Below, one piece after another: positions 8,598 to 49,951 of a DNA stretch of 64,000 nucleotides (position 1 is the stretch's first letter; the number at the start of each line of letters is the position of its first letter). Origin of the DNA: an uncultured Bacilli bacterium (lineage in GTDB: Bacteria > Bacillota_I > Bacilli_A > RF39 > UBA660); NCBI GenBank assembly GCA_944371905.1, contig CALVYA010000004.1, positions 9,078-73,077 on the forward strand, read 5' to 3'. Under the pieces are notes generated by a model that was given only the letters and a program-made list of their open reading frames with translations, was not told the DNA's origin and searched no databases. The position numbers and the translations under genes are program-made.

Positions 8598-11500
8598 ATG
8601 ACAAATATGGCCCTAGGAATAGACATTGGAATATCTTCTGTAGGAGTAGGAATAATTAATCAAGATACTGGAGAAATTATCGATAGTGCAGTTAGAATTT
8701 TCCCTCAAAATCATAAAGAAGATAATACTATAAGACGTACCATGAGGGGTAGTAAGAGAACATTAAGAAGAAAAAAACATCGTTTAGAAAGAGTAAGAGA
8801 TGAATTAGAAAATATAGACTTTCCTTGCCCAGACTATAAAAAATATAGTCATACTAATCCTTATGAAATTAGAGTCAAAGGATTAAATCATAAACTGTCA
8901 AAAGAGGAGATCTACATAGCTATTATGCATATTACTAAAAGACGTGGAATTAGTTATCTAGAAGATTTTACAAATGATAATATTAAAGATCCAAAAGTAA
9001 CAAACAAAATAATAGAAGAAAACTTAGAACTATCTAAAAACAAATATATATGTGAGATTCAGTTAGAGCGTTTACAAAATAATGATAAGGTACGTGGAAT
9101 TGATAATGTTTTTGAGACTAGAAAATATATAGAAGAATTGCAAAAAATTCTAAAAACGCAAGCTATATATTATGAAGAAATAGATGATGAATTTATTAAT
9201 GTAATAACAAATATAGTGAAATCAAAACGTGAATATTTTGAAGGACCTGGAAGCATTAAATCGAAAACAGATTATGGAAGATTTAAAACGAATGGAGAAG
9301 TATTAGATAATCTATTTGAAATATTGATTGGTAAATGTAGTATCTTTAAAGAGGAATTACGTGCTCCTAGAGCCTCCTACGATGCACAATTATTTAATTT
9401 TTTAAATGATTTAAATAATTTGATTATTAATAATGAGAAACTGACAAAAGAGGATAAACTAGCTATATATCATCATGTGATGAATTCTAAATCAGTTAAT
9501 ATGATTAATTTTATATGTAAATTAAAAAATGTTACAAAAGAACAAATAGAAGGTTATCGCATTGATCCTAATGGCAAACCTTTATTTCATAAGTTTGAAA
9601 TATATAAAAACTTTATGAATCAATTAGAAAAACGAGGAATAGATTCTAGTATGATTGACATTACTTCTTATAATAAAATTAGTCGTTGTCTTACCTTAGA
9701 GACTTCTAAAGCAAGAAAAGAAAAAGTTTTAAAAGAAGAATTGCCTGAGTTAAAAATAGAGGTTATTAAGGCTATCATTGAATTGGATGACAGTCATTTT
9801 AGCAAATGGCATTCCTTATCTTATAAGGCTATGAATGAAATTATCGATGATTTATGGAATACTTCCTTAGAACAACATACTTTGTTTTTACAACATAATT
9901 TGATTAAAGAGAACTACGAAATATATCAAGGTAAAAAGAATATTCCTACGGATTTTATTGATATGGATATTATGAATCCTATAGCAAGAAGAAGCATTCG
10001 GCAGGCTATTAAAATGATTAATGCTTTAAGAAAAAAATATGGGGAATTTAGCCATATTATTATTGAAATGGCTAGAGAACTATCCACAGATCCTAAAGAA
10101 ATACAAAAAGAACAAAAAAGAAATATGAAAGAAAAAGAAGAAGCGGTAGCTTTAGTAAAAGAATATGGGTATACATTAAATTCAATCCCAAATGAATTAC
10201 TAACAATGTTACGTTTATGGAAAAGTCAGGATGGAAAATGTATTTATTCTCATAAAAGTATTTCTATAGATGATTTAATAAATAATCACTATATGTTTCA
10301 AATTGATCATATTATTCCTAAATCGATTTCTTTTGATGATAGTATGAAAAATAAAGTACTATGCTATAGTAGTGAAAATCAAAAGAAAGGAGTTAAAATT
10401 CCCTCTCGCTATTTTGCAAGTGGTATGGCTAGTATTAGTTATGAAGAATATAAAAATTATGTTTTAGATTTGTTTGAACGTAATTTAATTACTAACGCTA
10501 AAAAAGAGTTGTTATTATATGATAAAGATATTACAAAATATGAAGTAAGAAGAGGATTTATTAATCGTAATTTGCAAGATACAAGATATGCTACTAGAGT
10601 AGTATTAAACACTTTACAAAATTATATGAAAGCTAATAATATAAAAACTAGTATTTTTACAGTAAAAGGAGCCTATACCAGTAAAATTAGAAATAGATGG
10701 AATCTTTCTAAAGATCGAACTTATTATAAACATCATGCAGTTGATGCATTAATTGTTGCCGCTAGTAATAAAGCAAAATTATATTATGATGGTCCTTTTT
10801 ATAATTATATTAATTCTTTTTTGAATAACGAGAAAGAAGAGAACCTTCTTATCCATAATGTTATAGATGATACTACTTATGATGAGATTGTATATTCAGA
10901 GCCATATTCTCATTTTATTAAAAATTTGAAAGAATTAAATCCAAAAATATCTCACAAAGTAGATACTAAAATAAATAGAGTTATTTCTGATGCAACTATA
11001 AAATCTTCTAGAATTATAAATGGTCATGAATATAAAATAACAAAATCAAATAACATTTATGAACAGGATGGTGAAAAAATAAAAAAGAAAATTTTAGAAA
11101 ATCCAGAGCAATTACTAATGTATTATCATGATAGACAGACATTTGATTATTTAGAAGAAATAGTAAAACACTATGCTGATGCTAAAAATCCTTTTTTAGA
11201 ATACTATAAAGAGCATGGAGCTATAAGAAAATATTCTAAAAAAGGAAATGGTCCTGTTATTACTTCTGTTAAATATTTAAATGGTAAATTAGGAATTCAT
11301 TTATCTATTCGGCACAAATATAAAGATACCAAAAATAATGTTTTTTTATCAACCCTTAAACCTTATAGAATAGATGTATATCAAAATGATAAAGGAAAAT
11401 ATAAATTTATTACTATTACTAACTCGATGTTTTCCTTTCATGGTGATAAATTACAATTAGAAAAAAGTCAATTGGAATTAGAAAAAAATAAGAAGAAAAT

Positions 11501-11768
11501 AACAGATGATTATCAGTTTCAATTCTCTTTATATAAAGGAGACTGTTTTGAAATAATGATAAATGATCATAAATATACCTATTCATTTTTAGGTATTCAA
11601 AGTGATAAAACAAATAAAATAGAATGTACTTATGTGGAAAAACAAAGGAGGAAAGAAGAAAGAATTTTTCTTAGTATTGGACCAAGTGTAAAAGAATTTA
11701 GAAAGTACTATACCGATATTTTAGGTAATAAATATTATAGTAAGTCCTTGACAAAATGTAATAATTAA
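8598..11768 (+). CDS. cas9: Type II-A Cas9, compact (1056 aa), S. aureus / S. thermophilus CRISPR1-like
   Basis: RuvC-I GIDIG, bridge helix RRTMRGSKRTLRRKKHR, RuvC-II IEMARE, HNH QIDHIIP...NQKK, RuvC-III HHAVDA, C-terminal TDILGN; catalytic residues appear intact. Confidence 0.97.
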   Translation: MTNMALGIDIGISSVGVGIINQDTGEIIDSAVRIFPQNHKEDNTIRRTMRGSKRTLRRKKHRLERVRDELENIDFPCPDYKKYSHTNPYEIRVKGLNHKLSKEEIYIAIMHITKRRGISYLEDFTNDNIKDPKVTNKIIEENLELSKNKYICEIQLERLQNNDKVRGIDNVFETRKYIEELQKILKTQAIYYEEIDDEFINVITNIVKSKREYFEGPGSIKSKTDYGRFKTNGEVLDNLFEILIGKCSIFKEELRAPRASYDAQLFNFLNDLNNLIINNEKLTKEDKLAIYHHVMNSKSVNMINFICKLKNVTKEQIEGYRIDPNGKPLFHKFEIYKNFMNQLEKRGIDSSMIDITSYNKISRCLTLETSKARKEKVLKEELPELKIEVIKAIIELDDSHFSKWHSLSYKAMNEIIDDLWNTSLEQHTLFLQHNLIKENYEIYQGKKNIPTDFIDMDIMNPIARRSIRQAIKMINALRKKYGEFSHIIIEMARELSTDPKEIQKEQKRNMKEKEEAVALVKEYGYTLNSIPNELLTMLRLWKSQDGKCIYSHKSISIDDLINNHYMFQIDHIIPKSISFDDSMKNKVLCYSSENQKKGVKIPSRYFASGMASISYEEYKNYVLDLFERNLITNAKKELLLYDKDITKYEVRRGFINRNLQDTRYATRVVLNTLQNYMKANNIKTSIFTVKGAYTSKIRNRWNLSKDRTYYKHHAVDALIVAASNKAKLYYDGPFYNYINSFLNNEKEENLLIHNVIDDTTYDEIVYSEPYSHFIKNLKELNPKISHKVDTKINRVISDATIKSSRIINGHEYKITKSNNIYEQDGEKIKKKILENPEQLLMYYHDRQTFDYLEEIVKHYADAKNPFLEYYKEHGAIRKYSKKGNGPVITSVKYLNGKLGIHLSIRHKYKDTKNNVFLSTLKPYRIDVYQNDKGKYKFITITNSMFSFHGDKLQLEKSQLELEKNKKKITDDYQFQFSLYKGDCFEIMINDHKYTYSFLGIQSDKTNKIECTYVEKQRRKEERIFLSIGPSVKEFRKYYTDILGNKYYSKSLTKCNN

Positions 11769-14214: not shown

Positions 14215-15233
14215 GTTTTAGTATTCTGTTAATTTAAGGTATTTGAAAACGTGAGATATTAAAGAGTATAGCAAGGCAAAGTTTTAGTATTCTGTTAATT
14301 TAAGGTATTTGAAAACTTGTTACTGCTTTAACAACTGGTATTACTGGTTTTAGTATTCTGTTAATTTAAGGTATTTGAAAACTTAAATATTTAACGACAC
14401 GACTTGGACTTTGTTTTAGTATTCTGTTAATTTAAGGTATTTGAAAACTTCGGAGCAAAAGTAGTTGCGGAAATAGTAAGTTTTAGTATTCTGTTAATTT
14501 AAGGTATTTGAAAACATCTTAATAATCATTATAGTTTTTATCCAAGTTTTAGTATTCTGTTAATTTAAGGTATTTGAAAACTAGATGGAGTAAAGTCTTT
14601 ATTTATTCCAGGTTTTAGTATTCTGTTAATTAAGGTATTTGAAAACAAAAGATGTTAATAGAATAACAACAACTTATGGTAAAGAAGAGTACGATGGCAG
14701 TTCATTAGAAGGATTACCAGGTTATATGGAACGTAACAGAGATAATATTGTGTATGATATAGATAAAGACATAAAAAAAAGAACCACTAACCCAAAGCTC
14801 CAATTGCATAACGTTAGTGGTTCATCTGGGAATAATATAACACAAACTGTTGAAAATGTCAATTTCCCTATTAATTACGATATGCAAAATCAACAAAATA
14901 ATACACAAGATTTTAAAGTTCCTATTCAAGAAGATATAAGACAAATGGAAATTTCTGATATCAAATTACCAACTAGAAAAACTTTAAATCCAACAGAAAT
15001 ATCTAGTTTAATTGAAGAAGATGAAAATACAACACCAATATTACCAAATGCTAAAGTTTCAACAGGAAAAGGAGAAAGTAATTTTGGTAATAATATTGAA
15101 AATAAAAATAATATGTTAAATGAAAATAGTAAAAGTACTATATTATCAGTTTGTTTTAGTATTCTGTTAATTTAAGGTATTTGAAAACGATTATTTAATA
15201 GTTTTCTATTACTGTTAGGTTTTAGTATTCTGT
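14215..15233 (+). CRISPR. Type II-A CRISPR array: 8 repeats plus truncated terminal repeat, 8 spacers, one of 506 bp
   Basis: Repeat GTTTTAGTATTCTGTTAATTTAAGGTATTTGAAAAC at 14215, 14281, 14347, 14413, 14480, 14546, 14612 (35 nt, one T missing), 15153; 15-nt partial at 15219; seven spacers of 30-31 nt. Confidence 0.98.
14647..15152 (+). other. 506-bp giant spacer or captured coding fragment within the array
   Basis: Flanked by repeats 7 and 8; one frame is stop-free across its whole length (ORF 14639-15175). Confidence 0.85.
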
Positions 15234-15326
15234 GACTTATATTTTCTTTAAAATATTGCATTAAATATTTTTGTAATATTTTTTTATTTTATAGATTGTG
15301 GTAAAATATAGGTGCAAGGTGATTAT

Positions 15327-29372: not shown

Positions 29373-29429
29373 TTTTATCTTTATTTTTTCTTATTTTTCA
29401 ATTCTTTTTTAAAACTGCCCGTTATTCAG
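29373..29429 (-). repeat. Conserved 3' flank shared with paralog 2 (40010-40067)
   Basis: ~57 nt, differing by one substitution and one indel. Confidence 0.85.
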
Positions 29430-31413
29430 TAATTATATAAGGCTCAGAACTAGTGCCATCTCCTTGGATAATTTCAACATCAGCACTTAAATTAATGACC
29501 GGGCGGACACCTCCAACAATATTAACATTGCCATAGTTATCTATGCCTCCAAAGGAACCAATACTACCAGCATGAGCTATACCTTCAGAAAAATCAATAG
29601 GACTCATTGTCCAATACCAAGCTCCTGTATATAGAAAATAATCATTATTTTCTCTTACTAATCCTCCACCCGCATACATTCCTTCATCTAATGTTATTAA
29701 TCCTATTGGATAATCTAATGCTTTATTTCCTTTATTACTACTACTAGTTGTATACAAATCATTACTTTGTGGGCATCCAAACCGTGGCGCGAATTCATCG
29801 ATTCTGTTAACTAAACTATACATAGTTTCATTTTGAGCATATCCTGATCCATCAAATACACTTCTATCACCGCAGAAACCACTATCTGATAAAAATTTAG
29901 TATAACTTAGTAAATTTTCTTTATACCAAGCATCTAAATATAATTTCATTACACTATCATGGGTATTAATATGTGTTGAATCATAATTATTACCTCCTGC
30001 CTCGCCATACATATATCCTACATAGGCATTATCATTGTAAGCAGTATTACAAGCACTTTTTCCTATCGTGGCTTCGTTTCCTGTCGCCCTAGAATTTGTA
30101 CCTTGATAAATGAGTCTTATTGACTCATCTTCATTAATTCTTATAATCCTCCAGTAAAATCCTGCAAAATATACATAATTATTCTCTACTGCTCCCCTAA
30201 AATAATACGTTGTCTTATTATCTTCCGTATTCTTGTTTGTATAGTATAATCCCGTCGTTCCATCCTCTTCACTCGTTTTACTAAAATCGATATTGGTATC
30301 TATTTGGGCTATGTTATCTTTTAATATTGCTATATTTAAATATGGTATCTTCTCTACATTACTTTTTAATGTTATTATTACTGGCCTTATTCTTTTTGCT
30401 GTAGTAGCTGAAGCTGTTGTTATTGTACTTCCATTAAAGTAATAAACAGTATTATTGCTGGTTCCTTTAGTCATTAACCAAAAGTTATAATTATTGGTTG
30501 TTGGTACCCAACTAGGAATTCCTCTTTTTGTTAGGTCATCATATTCTTCTTTCGTTAATAGTCTTGCTGTGGTTCCTGCTATATTCCCTCCATTATTCTT
30601 GATACTATTCTTGATATATGTTTCTACCGTATTCTTAACATAATATCCTATGTTATTTGTATCAAACTGATCATATTCATTCGTATTGTTACTATCAAAA
30701 GCTTTTGTATAAGTTCCATTCGTGGATACACTTCCATTACTACTTACTGTATTTTCACTTACTAGGGTTACTTTATCTTCATTACTAGAACTATTTTTAG
30801 TAACATACCAAATAGTGCCATCGATCAATCGAACCGCTTCTCCTACTTCATAAATTTCATACTCTCCTTCACTACTTCCTCCGGAACTACTTGGTTTACT
30901 ATTATCTATATAAATAAACGTTAGCATTAATTCTTTTTTTGTTTCACTGATATTCGTTACTCCACTTTTATATTTGATTGTTACTTTGGCTGTATTGGTC
31001 TCTCCTGGAGCTAAGGTTGTTACTTCTTCTTCTATCCCACTAATCTCATAAGTAATATTACTGTTCTCATCTTCAATTATTTCAATGTCATTTAATTTGG
31101 CTGGAATATTCCCTTGATTAGATAAAGTAATAGTATAAGTGATGGTAGAACTTGACGTTGGTAAGTTAGCATTTAAGGTTACTGTATTACTTACATAGTT
31201 ACTACTGATACTTGTAGCACTATTCGTTACCGTATTGGTTACCTTTGTTACCTTTACTATCCAACTTCTATCGATACTTGCTATTCCGTCTAGTTCTATA
31301 TATTGACTTAAAGCGGCATCCCCTAGGCTCATTACAAATACCACAAGACATAAGGATAACACTAGTATTCGCCTTTTTGTAAAGAACCTTTTTATTCTCT
31401 TCGTTGTTACCAA
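29422..31413 (-). CDS. Secreted TasA-like / CLec-like (DUF6273-like) surface protein, paralog 1; start codon doubtful
   Basis: N-terminal hydrophobic signal + LAPGETNTAKVTI Ig-like domain; YFRGAVENNYV, YPIGLITLDE, GVRPVINL, GDGTSSEPY. Confidence 0.75.
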   Translation of the reverse strand: MVTTKRIKRFFTKRRILVLSLCLVVFVMSLGDAALSQYIELDGIASIDRSWIVKVTKVTNTVTNSATSISSNYVSNTVTLNANLPTSSSTITYTITLSNQGNIPAKLNDIEIIEDENSNITYEISGIEEEVTTLAPGETNTAKVTIKYKSGVTNISETKKELMLTFIYIDNSKPSSSGGSSEGEYEIYEVGEAVRLIDGTIWYVTKNSSSNEDKVTLVSENTVSSNGSVSTNGTYTKAFDSNNTNEYDQFDTNNIGYYVKNTVETYIKNSIKNNGGNIAGTTARLLTKEEYDDLTKRGIPSWVPTTNNYNFWLMTKGTSNNTVYYFNGSTITTASATTAKRIRPVIITLKSNVEKIPYLNIAILKDNIAQIDTNIDFSKTSEEDGTTGLYYTNKNTEDNKTTYYFRGAVENNYVYFAGFYWRIIRINEDESIRLIYQGTNSRATGNEATIGKSACNTAYNDNAYVGYMYGEAGGNNYDSTHINTHDSVMKLYLDAWYKENLLSYTKFLSDSGFCGDRSVFDGSGYAQNETMYSLVNRIDEFAPRFGCPQSNDLYTTSSSNKGNKALDYPIGLITLDEGMYAGGGLVRENNDYFLYTGAWYWTMSPIDFSEGIAHAGSIGSFGGIDNYGNVNIVGGVRPVINLSADVEIIQGDGTSSEPYIITE

Positions 31414-31439
31414 CTCCGTTTTAGTTTATCTCTTATATC

Positions 31440-31470
31440 ATTATACCCCCCCCCCCCAGAAAATTTTCAA
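31440..31470 (-). promoter_or_regulatory. Poly-G (G12) spacer promoter of paralog 1
   Basis: Minus strand TTGAAA(31470-31465)-19 nt incl. G12(31457-31446)-TATAAT(31445-31440). Confidence 0.8.
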
Positions 31471-31586
31471 CAAAAATTTTTAGGGATCTTACATTATTTG
31501 ACAGGGTACATTATCTTATAATTTTATTTTATCAAATAAACTTTCTCTTTTAAATACTCCTGCACCCTATAAATTTCAACAAAAAA
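31440..31586 (-). repeat. ~147-bp conserved upstream element shared with 41578-41725
   Basis: Colinear high-identity non-coding alignment by eye. Confidence 0.85.
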
Positions 31587-40009: not shown

Positions 40010-40067
40010 TTTTATCTTTATTTTTTCTTATTTTTCAATTCCTTTTTTAAAACTGTCCGTTATTCAG
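40010..40067 (-). repeat. Conserved 3' flank shared with paralog 1
   Basis: GAATAACGGACAGTTTTAAAAAAGGAATTGAAAAATAAGAAAAAATAAAGATAAAA (minus strand). Confidence 0.85.
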
Positions 40068-41547
40068 CTAATTGATATGGATTAGAAACAGTTCCATCTC
40101 CTATCAATTGTCCTGCATCAGATTTCAGATTGATGACCGGACGGACACCCCTCGAATAGTTGACGCGGTAGTCGCTGAACAAGCGACCGAAGGAATTGAC
40201 GCCGCCAACGACAGCGTAAGACCCATCGAAGCCGACAGGGGTAAGACCCCAATAGTAATCACCTGTATATAAGTAATAACTTTCATTACTATTAAAAACT
40301 GTTCCCCCTGCATACATTCCTTCATCTAAGGTTATCAATCCTATTGGATACTCTAATGACTTATTCCCTTTTGTACTATTTCTTGTTGTATATAAATCTT
40401 GATTTTGTGGACAACTATATTGTGGTTGATAAGTATTAAATAATCTATTATTTATTTGATAATATGTTTCGTTCTTTCCATATCCTAATCCAGTAGACCC
40501 TTCCAAAGTAGCAATACTTCTATCTCCACAAAATCCACTATCTGCTATGTAACTCGCATAACTTAATAAATTCTCTTCATACCATGTATCTAATACTGTT
40601 TTGATTGTACTATCATTAATATTTGCATGGGTCTCTTCATAGGTGCTACTTCCAGGTGTTCCATACATATATCCTACATACGCATTATCATTATATTCTT
40701 CATTAAATGCACTACTTCCTATCATTGCTTCACTTCCCATTGCATCTGGTGTTGTTCCTTGATAGATAATTCTTAAACTTCCATCTTCATTGATTCTTAT
40801 AATCCTCCAATAGTATCCTGCAAATTTTACATAGTTATTCTCTACTGCTCCTCTATAGTAATATACTGTCTTCCCATCTTCTGTATTTGTGTTCGTATAA
40901 TATAATCCTTTCGTTCCATCTTCTTCACTTGTCTTACTAAAATCTATTTCACTATCATTTTTTACTGTATTATCTTCTAGTATAGAATTAATGAAAGATG
41001 GTCCTTCTATTTCTGGATCACTTGGGGTTATCTCTTGTCCTACATTTTGGGCATAATCAATATTTACTGTTAACTTATTATTTGTCTTTTCTGGTTGACT
41101 TGTTATACTATTATCATAACTTATCTTTATCTTAAATGTCGTACTTTCTTGTTTTAATAAGATATCTCCTATTCTTATATTACTGATTTCAAACTTTATT
41201 GCATCACTTCCAGTCTCACTAGCATTAATATCTTCTATGATGGCATCTAGTGTTCCTTGGTTCTCTACTGTGATTTGATATTCTATTGAGTCTCCCGGCT
41301 TTTGTAAATCTACATCAAATGTGACCGTTGTTCCACTTGCTGTTGGAGTATTATTTATCGTTACTCCATTTGTTTTACTTAACTCTTGAATATTCGTAAA
41401 TACTACTTTCCAATTCGATTCGATACTTGATGTTCCATTGATATTTAATGTTGTACTAAATGCTGCAAATGCTATTGCCATAATACAAATTAAACTACAC
41501 ATCACTCCTATGATTATTTTCTTTTCTCTCATATACTTCTCTTTCAT
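40060..41547 (-). CDS. Secreted TasA-like / CLec-like surface protein, paralog 2; probable DGR target
   Basis: IAFAAFSTTLNINGT signal motif, LQKPGDSIEYQITVENQG domain, C-terminal YW..GVRPVINL domain with GC-rich tip. Confidence 0.8.
   Translation of the reverse strand: MKEKYMREKKIIIGVMCSLICIMAIAFAAFSTTLNINGTSSIESNWKVVFTNIQELSKTNGVTINNTPTASGTTVTFDVDLQKPGDSIEYQITVENQGTLDAIIEDINASETGSDAIKFEISNIRIGDILLKQESTTFKIKISYDNSITSQPEKTNNKLTVNIDYAQNVGQEITPSDPEIEGPSFINSILEDNTVKNDSEIDFSKTSEEDGTKGLYYTNTNTEDGKTVYYYRGAVENNYVKFAGYYWRIIRINEDGSLRIIYQGTTPDAMGSEAMIGSSAFNEEYNDNAYVGYMYGTPGSSTYEETHANINDSTIKTVLDTWYEENLLSYASYIADSGFCGDRSIATLEGSTGLGYGKNETYYQINNRLFNTYQPQYSCPQNQDLYTTRNSTKGNKSLEYPIGLITLDEGMYAGGTVFNSNESYYLYTGDYYWGLTPVGFDGSYAVVGGVNSFGRLFSDYRVNYSRGVRPVINLKSDAGQLIGDGTVSNPYQLAE
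40126..40263 (-). other. Putative DGR variable region (VR) with IMH-like GC core GGTGTCCGTCCGGTCAT
   Basis: 46 consecutive codons with no A at third position, 23 ending in C; 71/120 G+C at 40131-40250 versus AT-rich rest of gene. Confidence 0.75.
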
Positions 41548-41577
41548 ACTCCCTCCGTTATTATTCTTCCTATCCTC

Positions 41578-41608
41578 ATTATACCCCCCCCCCCCAGGAA
41601 TTTTTCAA
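41578..41608 (-). promoter_or_regulatory. Poly-G (G12) spacer promoter of paralog 2
   Basis: Minus strand TTGAAA(41608-41603)-19 nt incl. G12(41595-41584)-TATAAT(41583-41578). Confidence 0.8.
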
Positions 41609-41725
41609 GAAAAATTTTTAAGGACCTTACATTATTTGACAGGGTATCATATTCTATAATTTTATTTTATCAAACATTCAGTTTCTTTAAAATACTCCTA
41701 CACCCTATATTTCTCGACAAAAAAA
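41578..41725 (-). repeat. ~148-bp conserved upstream element shared with 31440-31586
   Basis: Colinear non-coding alignment. Confidence 0.85.
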
Positions 41726-41745
41726 TAAAGAACCCAAATAGTTCC

Positions 41746-43783: not shown

Positions 43784-44752
43784 ATGAAAACAAAAATAAC
43801 AAGTTTACTTATTGTTGTACTATTAGTAATTACTACTATATTATTTTTAACTTTTCCAGAAGATGTCATGTCTTCAGTTAGCTTTTCTATTTCTATTTGG
43901 AAAGATACGCTAATTCCATCTTTATTTCCTTTCTTTTTAATTTCTGAATTATTAATTCATTATGGGTTTATTGAATTATTAGGTGAAGGATTAAGAGGTT
44001 TTATGAATAAAGTATTTCATTTACCGGGGGAAGCATCTTTCGTCTTAATTGGAAGTTTAATATCAGGGTTCCCTAGTAGTAGTAAATATATTAGTGGACT
44101 ATTAGATGATGGGAAAATTAATATTCAACAAGCTTCTTATTTATTAAAATTTAATCATTTTTCTAATCCTTTATTTGTAATTGGAACTGTAGGTACCTTA
44201 ATGTTAAATAACAAAAGTATTGGGATCTTAATTTTAATCATACATATATTATCCAATTTTATCGTAGCAATGATTTATCGTCCTAAATATTGTAATGATA
44301 CCCCTGCAAAATCATCTTTTTTTATAGGAATTAGTCGCATGCATAAAAAAAGAATAGATAATAATACTTCCTTCGCTTCCTTTCTTACTGAAAGTATTTT
44401 TAAGATATTTCAAACTTTATTATTACTATTGGGAATCATTACTAGTTTTTTAATTATTACTACGTTATTAAAAAAGGTTTTAAACTTAGATAGTATGTCC
44501 TTTTCTATTTTAAGCGGTCTTTTAGAAATGACACAAGGAATAAAAAATATATCTTTATTAGATATATCTCTTAGTATCAAAGCTAGTATTATTACTTTTT
44601 TTATTTCTTTTGGGGGATTTAGCATCCATATGCAAGTACTTTCTATTTTATCTAATTATAAAATAAAGTATCTTCCTTACCTTTTAGCAAGACTAGTTCA
44701 TGCTATCATTGCTAGTAGTATTATTTTCATCCTTTTAACCCTAGTTATTTAA
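43784..44752 (+). CDS. ylbJ: Sporulation integral membrane protein YlbJ-like
   Basis: LIPSLFPFF, SGFPSS, FSNPLF, GLLEMTQG, GGFSIHMQV; adjacent to ylbL. Confidence 0.85.
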   Translation: MKTKITSLLIVVLLVITTILFLTFPEDVMSSVSFSISIWKDTLIPSLFPFFLISELLIHYGFIELLGEGLRGFMNKVFHLPGEASFVLIGSLISGFPSSSKYISGLLDDGKINIQQASYLLKFNHFSNPLFVIGTVGTLMLNNKSIGILILIIHILSNFIVAMIYRPKYCNDTPAKSSFFIGISRMHKKRIDNNTSFASFLTESIFKIFQTLLLLLGIITSFLIITTLLKKVLNLDSMSFSILSGLLEMTQGIKNISLLDISLSIKASIITFFISFGGFSIHMQVLSILSNYKIKYLPYLLARLVHAIIASSIIFILLTLVI

Positions 44753-45287
44753 CCCCAGTAGTTACGACATCTATTACAAATTCATCATCCAAATCTTGAT
44801 GATCAATACGTAATTTTATATGATATATTACTCCATATTCTAAATTATCAGTACTAACAGAAGAAGTTAAAATATAATCATCTACCACATTAGCAAATTT
44901 AGGATCTGGATTATCATATTTTACTCCACCATATAGAATATAAAATGTTGGTATTTCAAAGTGACCATCCATGATCACATCTTCTACTACTTTTAATTGC
45001 TTAGTAGCACCATCTAGAAATTTAATATCGATACATTGTTTAATGATGGAATTATCATTATTTCTACAAAAATCAATAGAATCTACTTTACGATCTACTG
45101 TATCTTGATAAATATCTTGTGTTAAAGTATTTTGTAGTGTCAATAGATCTCTTCTTACAGATTCTTCTTGCTCTCTATTACGATAATTATTGACAAGAGC
45201 AAACATTGCTACTGCTAAAAACATAACTAGAGCAAAACTTAAAATTAATTCAATTACAGTAAAACCTTTATTATTATCCAACATCAT
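44745..45287 (-). CDS. Type IV pilin-like protein
   Basis: Class III signal KG|FTVIE + hydrophobic helix. Confidence 0.8.
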   Translation of the reverse strand: MMLDNNKGFTVIELILSFALVMFLAVAMFALVNNYRNREQEESVRRDLLTLQNTLTQDIYQDTVDRKVDSIDFCRNNDNSIIKQCIDIKFLDGATKQLKVVEDVIMDGHFEIPTFYILYGGVKYDNPDPKFANVVDDYILTSSVSTDNLEYGVIYHIKLRIDHQDLDDEFVIDVVTTGVK

Positions 45288-45861
45288 AACGCACCTCTAT
45301 ATTTGAAAATCTTCCATCATTAAATACTACTATCATTCTATAATAACTATCATATCTACTAGAATACTTTCCATAATCAGGAAGATAATCTACGTATTCT
45401 CTCAATGCTCGATCAAAATTCTTATTGTCTTTGACTTCATTTTTAAAACTTCCTAATTTAAACGGCGTTACAATGACTTCCTTGACATTTAAATAATCTT
45501 CACTAAATAATTTATTGCAATAATTAGGAGAAGTTAATAATGAACAAAGACGATTTTTAGTAACAACATCATCTCCTACCGTTTCATTATAATTTTGATA
45601 ACGATAGTAGCCACTATTACCTGAAATATGACTAGAAAATATACTAGTTAAATTAGCATCTTTATCAAATTCTCTTAGAAGCATTTTTCTAATTTCATGA
45701 GCTTTATATTTGGTATCTACATTATCGTAATCACTTACCCGTTCATAATCAGCGATCAATGGCAAAAAATTTGTAAATAAAAAGGTACATATCCCTATTA
45801 CAAATACTGCAACAATAATAGTTTCAACCATTACAAACCCCTGGTTGTCAATCTTTTTCAT
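45274..45861 (-). CDS. Type IV pilin-like protein
   Basis: Class III signal QG|FVMVE + hydrophobic helix. Confidence 0.75.
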   Translation of the reverse strand: MKKIDNQGFVMVETIIVAVFVIGICTFLFTNFLPLIADYERVSDYDNVDTKYKAHEIRKMLLREFDKDANLTSIFSSHISGNSGYYRYQNYNETVGDDVVTKNRLCSLLTSPNYCNKLFSEDYLNVKEVIVTPFKLGSFKNEVKDNKNFDRALREYVDYLPDYGKYSSRYDSYYRMIVVFNDGRFSNIEVRYDVG

Positions 45862-45955
45862 TTTTTCACTTACCTTTATTGATTATATCTTGAATCTATT
45901 ATATAATAAATTAGAGTAAAATACTATAGAGAAAATCAAAAAGGGGCTAAAAAGT

Positions 45956-47323
45956 ATGGTAGAATATGATTTACAACATGTACCAATAGTAGATATTGTT
46001 AACCAAATTATATTGTATGCTGCACAACATAATGCTAGTGACATACATTTGGATCCTAGGGAAGATTGTCTAATGATTCGTATGCGTATGGATGGACAAT
46101 TAAGAGACCATACTATGATTCCTAAAGAATATGAACGTAATTTAACTACTAGGGTAAAACTGATATCTAATATGAATATTACGGAAACAAGATTACCTCA
46201 AGATGGAGCCATTAAAGGACGTATTGAAGGAAAAGATTTAGATATGCGTGTATCTGCTCTACCTACTAATGAGGGAGAAAAAGTAGTTATTCGTATTTTG
46301 GATTTTACTAAAAGCTTGACAGGAATGGATAGTTTAGGTTTTTCTCCTAAAAATTATAAATTAGTTAGTAAGATGATGGAAGTACCTAATGGTATCATTT
46401 TAGTTACTGGTGCTACTGGTAGTGGTAAATCTACTACTACTTATTCCATGTTACAAGCACTAAATAAAGAAGAAACCAATATTATTACCGTAGAAGACCC
46501 AATAGAAATGAATATTGAAGGAATTAACCAAGTACAAGTAAATAGTGATATTGGATTAACTTTTGCCACCGTTTTAAGATCTATTTTAAGACAAGATCCT
46601 AATATTATTCTAATAGGAGAAATTCGTGATTCAGAAACAGCAAAAATAGCTGTTCGTGCTTCTATTACTGGTCACTTAGTACTATCAACTATCCATACTA
46701 ATGATTCTTTAAGTACTATTGAAAGATTACTAGATATGGATGTAGAACGATATTTATTGTCTAGTGCATTAACTGGTATTATTTCTCAAAAATTAGTAAG
46801 AACTCTTTGTCCTTATTGTCGTAAAAAAAGACCTGTCACTCCTTATGAAGAACATTTTTTTAGAAGAGTGTTAAATAAATATGTTCCTGAAGTATACGAA
46901 CCTGTGGGATGTGAACACTGTAATCACGGATTTAGAGGCCGTATGGCTGTACATGAAGTTTTATATATTACTGATCACTTGAGAGATGTTATTAGTGATC
47001 CTAGTATTGATAAAGAAGAATTAAGAAAAATTGTTTATAATGGAAGTACTACTACTCTACTACAAGATGCTTTAGAAAAAGTAATTGAAGGATATACAAC
47101 TTTTAATGAAGTGGTACGTATCGTTGAAGTAGATGCTGATTTAGAAAAAAGTATTTCAACTGAAGTGGAAGAAGAAACTGTTTCTAAATATGAAAAAGAG
47201 GAAGAAGAGAAAGAAATATATGAAATTATTGATGCGTATGAATTAGAAGTCATTGATGCTTATGCTGTTGAAATAGAAATTATCGATATGTATGATAGTT
47301 TTAGATTAAATTATGGCACTTAA
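45956..47323 (+). CDS. PilB/GspE-family secretion or pilus assembly ATPase
   Basis: ASDIHLDP, GATGSGKS, TVEDPIE, LRQDP..GEIRD, HLVLSTIH, CPYC..CEHC zinc motif. Confidence 0.92.
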   Translation: MVEYDLQHVPIVDIVNQIILYAAQHNASDIHLDPREDCLMIRMRMDGQLRDHTMIPKEYERNLTTRVKLISNMNITETRLPQDGAIKGRIEGKDLDMRVSALPTNEGEKVVIRILDFTKSLTGMDSLGFSPKNYKLVSKMMEVPNGIILVTGATGSGKSTTTYSMLQALNKEETNIITVEDPIEMNIEGINQVQVNSDIGLTFATVLRSILRQDPNIILIGEIRDSETAKIAVRASITGHLVLSTIHTNDSLSTIERLLDMDVERYLLSSALTGIISQKLVRTLCPYCRKKRPVTPYEEHFFRRVLNKYVPEVYEPVGCEHCNHGFRGRMAVHEVLYITDHLRDVISDPSIDKEELRKIVYNGSTTTLLQDALEKVIEGYTTFNEVVRIVEVDADLEKSISTEVEEETVSKYEKEEEEKEIYEIIDAYELEVIDAYAVEIEIIDMYDSFRLNYGT

Positions 47324-49848: not shown

Positions 49849-49951
49849 TTAATTCACTCACTTCTCCACACCTATTATAAATTCATTATACCCCTATCTT
49901 CTATCTTATTACAATAAAAAAAGTAACTATTTTCTAGTTACTTTACAATTA

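Follow-up and report, generated by a model that had tools for sequence, protein, structure and literature searches.

Does a run of twelve guanines in the promoter spacer of a predicted surface-protein gene, between −35 and −10, act as a switch set by its own length, or is it a static feature of the promoter? The question is raised by P2, a minus-strand gene in the window, the 64,000-nucleotide stretch of DNA from an uncultured Bacilli bacterium that was analyzed here. The window holds at least three paralogous genes of this kind, designated P1, P2, and P3 (Table 1). An earlier note on the same DNA had described a phase-variable P2 promoter, a candidate operator over its −35, and a putative DGR target. 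Phase variation of the promoter is likely, and the DGR link and the operator are not supported. Specifically, G12 is probably a hypermutable homopolymer in a σA-type promoter spacer, where slippage would set promoter strength and the assembled length would be weak or OFF. This reading draws on the position of the tract, its specificity to the promoters of one gene family, its polymorphism between assemblies, and a comparison of promoter spacers.

Table 1. Coordinates of P2, its promoter parts, and its paralogs in the window
Feature	Coordinates	Strand	Description
P1	29422..31413	(-)	Paralog, 663 aa as the ORF is listed
P1 promoter	31440..31470	(-)	TTGAAA 31470-31465, attttct, G12 31457-31446, TATAAT 31445-31440; 19-nt spacer
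P2	40060..41547	(-)	495 aa, proposed regulated gene; predicted N-terminal membrane helix, Ig-like β-sandwich, and DUF6273-like C-terminal domain
P2 5′ leader (predicted)	41548..41577	(-)	30 nt; Shine-Dalgarno GGAGGG at 41556-41551
P2 −10 hexamer	41578..41583	(-)	TATAAT; TATAAT/TATACT follows the tract directly or after ‘tg’ in all tract-bearing promoters
P2 G tract	41584..41595	(-)	Uninterrupted G12 (C12 on the + strand); proposed slippage-prone element
P2 non-G spacer part	41596..41602	(-)	aattcct, 7 nt
P2 −35 hexamer	41603..41608	(-)	TTGAAA; TTGnnn lies 5-9 nt 5′ of the G run in 24/24 tract-bearing promoters
P2 upstream block	41609..41724	(-)	~115 bp 5′ of the −35, ~85% conserved between the P1 and P2 cassettes
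Terminator-like hairpin	41719..41745	(-)	GGAAC-tatttg-GGTTC plus T run; closes the upstream 318-aa gene
P3	47359-49848	(-)	Third paralog, 829 aa
P3 promoter	49885..49914	(-)	TTGTAA-N18-TATAAT with only GGGG beside the −10; putative fixed, non-switching counterpart

The P2 promoter

The P2 promoter is TTGAAA-N19-TATAAT on the minus strand with G12 abutting the −10 hexamer, exactly as had been claimed. The tract does lie in a σ70/σA-type spacer, which is 19 nt long, and spacer length is the quantity that varies with it. The non-G part of the spacer is 7 nt throughout P2’s species group; other lineages have 8 nt or 6+2 nt, with correspondingly shorter G runs. Promoter-like sites number 94 in the window and 104 in the expectation from shuffles, and hexamers alone are not significant in AT-rich DNA, so the case for this promoter is comparative. 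The weight of the P2 hexamers comes from their conservation across paralogs and distant relatives. The leader of 30 nt between the −10 and the ATG (41547-41545) is kept in the related loci L001, L004, and L005, and P2 transcription would start downstream of the tract’s −10.

A terminator-like hairpin ends the upstream 318-aa gene, and P2 therefore probably needs a promoter of its own; a simple terminator scan missed this hairpin because its stem is short. In the lineage with TTGCCA/TTGCTA-aatcccta-G10/11-TATAAT promoters, the −35 stands directly 3′ of the upstream gene’s terminator hairpin, which leaves no other promoter available there. The upstream block of P2, whose P1 counterpart spans 31471-31586, is better conserved than the N-terminal coding regions. 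It holds a second promoter-like site, TTGATA-N16-TATGAT at 41673-41646, which could drive tract-independent P2 transcription and is degenerate in P1. In addition, a G at −14 forms a partial extended −10 that might soften the spacing dependence of the P2 promoter. No known RNA family in Rfam matches anywhere in the window, so the conserved promoter cassette is not a known riboswitch or sRNA.

The palindrome AATTTTTC-N2-GAAAAATT is present over the −35 at 41599-41616, but its candidacy as an operator was rejected. Perfect inverted repeats with 8-bp arms occur 24 times in the window, or about one per 2.7 kb, and the form of this one is not kept: in P1 the dyad around the −35 differs and is imperfect, and in the TTGCCA lineage no palindrome is present. 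The A5T5 in the upstream block beside the −35 could equally be an UP-like element. An inverton was also rejected, since no conserved inverted repeats flank the P1 or P2 promoter and the neighboring genes, which encode a Lon/PDZ protease-like protein, a membrane protein of 318 aa, MutS, and MutL, include no recombinase.

Distribution of G tracts

The window has a GC content of 27.5%, and just two of its G/C runs exceed 6 nt. Both are G12 and occupy homologous positions in the P1 and P2 promoters, the next longest run being 6, whereas composition predicts ~1e-5 runs of at least 12 in the window. The assertion that long G runs are otherwise absent was thus mistaken, since the second G12 stands on the minus strand at the same place in the P1 promoter.

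Exact-protein look-ups and one profile-based metagenome scan gathered 118 related loci (identified here by L numbers), whose contigs derive partly from human gut metagenomes, Hadza samples included. Look-ups with the neighboring 318-aa protein and MutL recovered further loci, while those with the window’s own P2 and with thioredoxin returned no matches. MutS retrieved only contigs that start inside P2 or later and added no tract data, and a single-protein search of genome contigs yielded one locus, a tract-free relative with an N17 spacer. The exact DNA pattern of the −35 region plus GGGG had no match in JGI metagenome contigs.

A census of G/C runs of at least 8 covered the window and the first 112 loci, a total of 450 kb at 29% GC. 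All 24 such runs fit the arrangement TTGnnn-(5-9 nt)-Gn-(0-2 nt)-TAnnnT 5′ of a family member, with G always on the coding strand and the tract ~30 nt upstream of that member’s start codon. Each run abuts TAnnnT directly or with ‘tg’ between them. Where the upstream DNA of family members was readable, about half show a tract of G9-G13 and the others ordinary spacers. Tract-bearing promoters recur in unrelated projects (ONAT22, BRZ, ERZ2916xxx, Hadza, MERR22, and OIYG/OLHG). Selection or ongoing slippage would seem to be needed to explain why pure G12-13 persists in many diverged paralogs at 27-29% GC. The poly-G promoter signature (TTGnnn, 5-9 nt, G≥9, TATAAT) also serves as a simple searchable marker for such genes.

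Tract length between assemblies

Three tract-bearing loci, P2, P1, and P0100, were recovered in more than one independent assembly. At the P2 locus, between the 318-aa gene and mutS, the tract is G12 in the window and G13 in L001, L092, and L095, between flanks that are identical over the stretches compared. Across 9,488 aligned bases of the window and L001 there is a single indel, which is located in the tract. At the P1 locus, after mutL, the window and L099 have G12 and L098 has G13. The P0100 locus belongs to a different lineage and has G11 in L111 and G10 in L112, again between identical flanks. Tract length therefore differs by 1 nt between assemblies at each of the three loci, and the invariance that the earlier note had set as grounds for refutation is not seen; all of these lengths come from consensus short-read assemblies, several at 3-6x coverage, where homopolymer calls are unreliable. 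Homopolymer lengths from short-read assemblies generally call for caution (PMC4577077). Two tract-free promoters served as a control and are identical across assemblies from different samples, P0032 in 6 and P0080 in 10.

Public short-read contigs repeatedly break within the promoter cassette or early in P2, and most of the assemblies examined lack a contiguous stretch that covers both the cassette and the gene at the P2 locus. The break points include L006 1-41, the 3′ ends of L092-L095 and L097, and the 5′ ends of L113-L118. L006 begins right after the −10, and three Logan contigs stop at the same base.

Spacer length and promoter state

Tract-free promoters of the family have spacers of 17-18 nt. 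One example is L002, whose promoter is TTGAAA-N17-TATCAT and whose protein is 65% identical to P2; further examples are P3 (N18), L014, L017, L036, L039, and L085. Two relatives of L044 carry an interrupted tract, GGGTGGGGG in L051 and GGGTGGGGA in L056, and each has an 18-nt spacer, whereas L044 itself has G10 and a 19-nt spacer. The 24 tract-bearing spacers are 17 nt in one case, 18 in three, 19 in 15, and 20 in five. They are longer than the fixed ones (Mann-Whitney p = 3e-5, with phylogenetically non-independent samples). The claim that the assembled P2 spacer is over-long is borne out, as its 19 nt exceed by 1-2 nt the 17-18 nt of tract-free and interrupted-tract relatives.

The non-G and G parts of the spacer combine as 7+12/13, 8+10/11, 9+10, and 8+9/10. 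G-run length drops as the non-G part grows (Spearman -0.89, samples again non-independent). Across these sequences the total distance between −35 and −10, not the number of Gs, stays within tight limits, as it should if function depends on spacing. On this comparison, the strong state of P2 should be 17-18 nt (G10-G11), and 19 nt (G12) and 20 nt (G13) should be weak or OFF, in line with the earlier note.

Short GGG or GGGG beside the −10, seen in P3, L017, and L039, looks like the seed of the long tracts. A static weak promoter is one reading that builds on this, with the tract as a neutral by-product of GGG/GGGG expansion and the 1-nt length differences as drift or assembly error. It would account for GGG or GGGG standing in the same place in tract-free paralogs, and the low coverage of several assemblies leaves it room. 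Among 7 assemblies of two loci from P2’s species, moreover, only G12 and G13 were found, and the predicted ON lengths G10-G11 are absent. Against neutrality, the tract is uninterrupted in 24/24 promoters, in lineages whose proteins are 30-60% identical to P2, despite strong AT bias, and its length compensates for that of the non-G spacer. It also fronts about half of the readable family promoters and no other gene, and where interrupted tracts do exist they come with an 18-nt spacer. A static promoter with a neutral tract is therefore judged unlikely.

The 19-nt mode is seen repeatedly across lineages and might itself be a selected functional state. A G-rich spacer of this length could be read by a tract-binding regulator, or a stiff A-like geometry could make 19 nt equivalent to about 17-18 nt; changes in length would in that case adjust expression or, at lengths other than 19, turn it OFF. 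The mode is sharp (15/24) and is reached as 7+12, 8+11, and 9+10 in different lineages, as this explanation would have it. Tract-free and interrupted-tract promoters of the same family nevertheless use 17-18 nt, and in the G-tract promoters of the Neisseria porA type it is the canonical 17-bp spacer that gives high expression (PMC4577077). No regulator candidate was found linked to the family loci. Taken together, these points make a functional 19-nt state quite unlikely, and a spacer that is over-long by slippage is the preferred reading.

Paralogs and gene conversion

The flanks of P1 and P2 are conserved over ~150 bp upstream (~85%) and ~40 bp downstream (~75%), and their proteins share 29% identity in the N-terminal domains and 58% in the C-terminal ones. 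P1 begins with ACG in the window (31404-31402) and with ATG in the near-identical L098 and L099, where GGAG lies 9 nt upstream. P1 may thus be translationally silent in the window’s strain, and the ACG start fits a silent, dispensable P1 there.

Over the 9.5 kb shared by the window and L001, 30 of 30 substitutions fall inside P2 (binomial p = 7e-25), mostly in the patches 41289-41329 and 40709-40776. For each of the two, the L001 sequence is found verbatim in other paralogs, L005/L006 for one and L004/L003 for the other, which points to gene conversion among paralogs. In other lineages, L007 and L013 share an upstream context that continues into different downstream leaders and genes, as do L011 and L015, and the sequences diverge near the poly-G promoter (within ~100 nt of G11 on each side). 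This suggests that the conserved promoter is used as a junction for cassette exchange.

The P1 and P2 cassettes are direct repeats, at 29384-31586 and 40022-41724, that lie about 10.1-10.6 kb apart and enclose mutS, cvpA, thioredoxin, a UPF0029 gene, uvrC, a 120-aa ORF, and mutL. Recombination between them would remove both mismatch-repair genes. P2 immediately precedes mutS, and P1 immediately follows mutL; the other tract-bearing paralogs lie in unrelated gene contexts. The 134-nt gap between P2 and mutS contains an AT-rich hairpin followed by U7, and mutS has a TG-extended −10 promoter-like site of its own, so a coupling of P2 to mutS is not indicated. On this arrangement, the adjacency to mismatch-repair genes is probably coincidental. 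MutS and MutL are both encoded intact in the window, and intact proteins would lower slippage rates, which counts against the switch.

The P2 protein and its family

P2 is predicted to be a membrane-anchored protein exposed at the cell surface. Its family counts more than 6000 members in databases, all of them unnamed. P2 matches no Pfam family above threshold, and P1, P2, and P3 show weak matches to Ig-like domains (DUF7507 and choice-of-anchor D). In relatives of P2 the match to DUF6273 is confined to its last third, and dockerin or CBM_X2 inserts are present in some of them. A sequence search of the PDB with P2 found nothing.

The AlphaFold2 model of P2 reaches a pLDDT of 87 with 85 sequences, up from 53 with 16 sequences. 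In it, residues 1-33 form an N-terminal helix, 48-167 an Ig-like β-sandwich, and 180-495 a globular C-terminal domain. In Foldseek comparisons the sandwich resembles Ig-like domains of appendages and filaments. The C-terminal domain weakly matches DUF6273 phage proteins (TM 0.2-0.5) and, also weakly, the IgA peptidase of Thomasclavelia ramosa, whose N-terminal domain is annotated as DUF6273 (PMC12402451).

In L004 (1-2276) the tract-bearing paralog lies directly 3′ of a signal-peptidase-I-like gene (Peptidase_S26, a weak match) and a DUF5305 gene. This order recalls sipW-type export operons, and the family has the N-terminal motif ‘AAFS(T)’. Between P2 and P3, at 44745-47323, the window encodes a pilin-like protein whose N terminus bears a methylation motif (ORF 44745-45287), along with a type II/IV secretion ATPase (45956-47323). 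The window also contains a Cas9 gene (1056 aa, 8598-11768) and, within 14215-15238, a CRISPR array in which 30-nt spacers separate six 36-nt repeats (GTTTTAGTATTCTGTTAATTTAAGGTATTTGAAAAC); one more repeat lies at 15153, past an intervening ORF at 14639-15175.

DUF6273 has a C-type-lectin-like fold and is present in phage DGR targets (PMC10743442), which probably explains why P2 had been labeled a DGR target. If the label were right, the promoter tract would gate a receptor diversified by a retroelement, and the weak DUF6273 likeness of the C-terminal domain is all that speaks for it. Among the ORFs of at least 80 aa in the 64-kb window, however, none has the reverse-transcriptase YxDD motif in a credible context, and the single ORF that contains YxDD has no Pfam match. 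The window also has no template/variable repeat pair, as the direct repeats of P2 reflect whole-gene paralog similarity of 67-85%, and no reverse transcriptase is listed in about 10 genomic contexts of family members. Allelic differences fall in the Ig-like domain and the middle of the protein, not in a variable region at the C terminus, and match other paralogs exactly. P2 was therefore rejected as a DGR target, and a retroelement-diversified protein is very unlikely; the variation traces to gene conversion between paralogs.

The proposed switch

In the preferred reading, a length switch in the promoter spacer, slipped-strand mispairing at replication would add or remove single Gs in the tract. 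Each such change would shift the σA −35 to −10 distance by 1 nt and thereby alter promoter strength. At any given moment, most copies would be one to three steps longer than the optimum. The tract stands before roughly half of the readable family members, so each paralog could switch alone; independent switching would yield a population of mixed surface composition, to which gene conversion between paralogs would add sequence diversity. P2 looks like a typical target of such a switch, as a predicted surface protein from a multigene family with mosaic gene conversion. The tract’s position, family specificity, length polymorphism between assemblies, and spacer comparison are observations; the slippage rate, its reversibility within a clone, the length dependence of transcription, and the surface location of P2 are inferences.

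A sequencing or assembly artefact, such as poly-G from two-colour Illumina chemistry, is hardly credible: homopolymer G runs are a known artefact class and contigs often break near the cassette, yet the tract lies within its contigs, flanked by unique sequence, and such runs turn up in assemblies of several unrelated projects, always at this place in the promoter and nowhere else in 450 kb.

A wider proposal would extend the switch to the whole family in uncultured human-gut Bacilli, as an OFF-biased poly-G device combined with cassette-like gene conversion in more than 6000 lectin-like surface proteins, with a 19-nt mode that perhaps serves something beyond ON and OFF. This proposal is speculative and seems improbable. 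The extra role of the 19-nt mode may lie in G-tract geometry, a tract-binding factor, or coupling with mutS/mutL.

Should the tracts indeed switch, expression in a very large, unnamed family of lectin-like surface proteins would be governed stochastically, one gene at a time. Such control would bear on strain-level heterogeneity, on evasion of phages and antibodies, and on how metagenome assemblies that break at these loci are interpreted.

Comparison with known systems

Promoter switching mediated by repeats is textbook knowledge for Neisseria, Haemophilus, Bordetella, and the mycoplasmas. The tract lengths of the Neisseria porA promoter were reportedly described by van der Ende et al. in 1995. 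Like porA, fetA, and opc of N. meningitidis, the P2 promoter has a G:C homopolymer in or next to a σ70-type spacer, where 1-nt slippage would alter spacing, and a target that is predicted to be a surface protein. It differs in its host, which is an AT-rich uncultured member of the Bacilli and not a proteobacterium. The Neisseria tracts control single genes, whereas here many paralogs from one very large family are preceded by a tract. The assembled states here cluster at +1 to +3 over the optimum.

The fim2 and fim3 promoters of Bordetella pertussis are said to carry poly-C of about 13-15 nt 5′ of the −10, whose length sets the spacing of an upstream element (Willems et al. in 1990). They resemble the P2 promoter in having a long C:G homopolymer upstream of the −10. 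Unlike P2, which has a canonical TTGAAA −35 and no activator indicated, they require the activator BvgA.

DGR variable proteins with DUF6273 or C-type-lectin-like domains are similar to P2 in the weak sequence and fold resemblance of the C-terminal domain (PMC10743442). They differ in that P2 is found without a reverse transcriptase, a template repeat, or adenine-directed variation, and its diversity arises from paralog gene conversion. Gut invertons likewise give phase-variable expression of surface structures in gut commensals, as is proposed here, but the P2 promoter has neither conserved inverted repeats around it nor a recombinase next to it.

Mycoplasmas offer a further parallel. In vlp of M. 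hyorhinis (poly-A) and Vmm of M. mycoides (TA repeats), repeats in the promoter spacer switch expression (PMC10502178). These systems share with P2, whose product is predicted to lie at the surface, a multigene family of surface proteins in an AT-rich relative of the Firmicutes, in which each gene has its own repeat promoter (PMC10502178), an arrangement that allows combinatorial ON/OFF patterns. In contrast to their poly-A or TA repeats, the P2 family uses poly-G in a 27% GC genome. Its proteins also differ from the repeat-region lipoproteins of mycoplasmas, being composed of Ig-like and DUF6273-like domains with an N-terminal membrane helix. A literature search returned no report of promoter-repeat switching in uncultured AT-rich gut Bacilli or in P2’s family; the type of switch itself is already known. 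If true, a family-wide switch would be the commensal Firmicute counterpart of mycoplasma vlp and neisserial opa.
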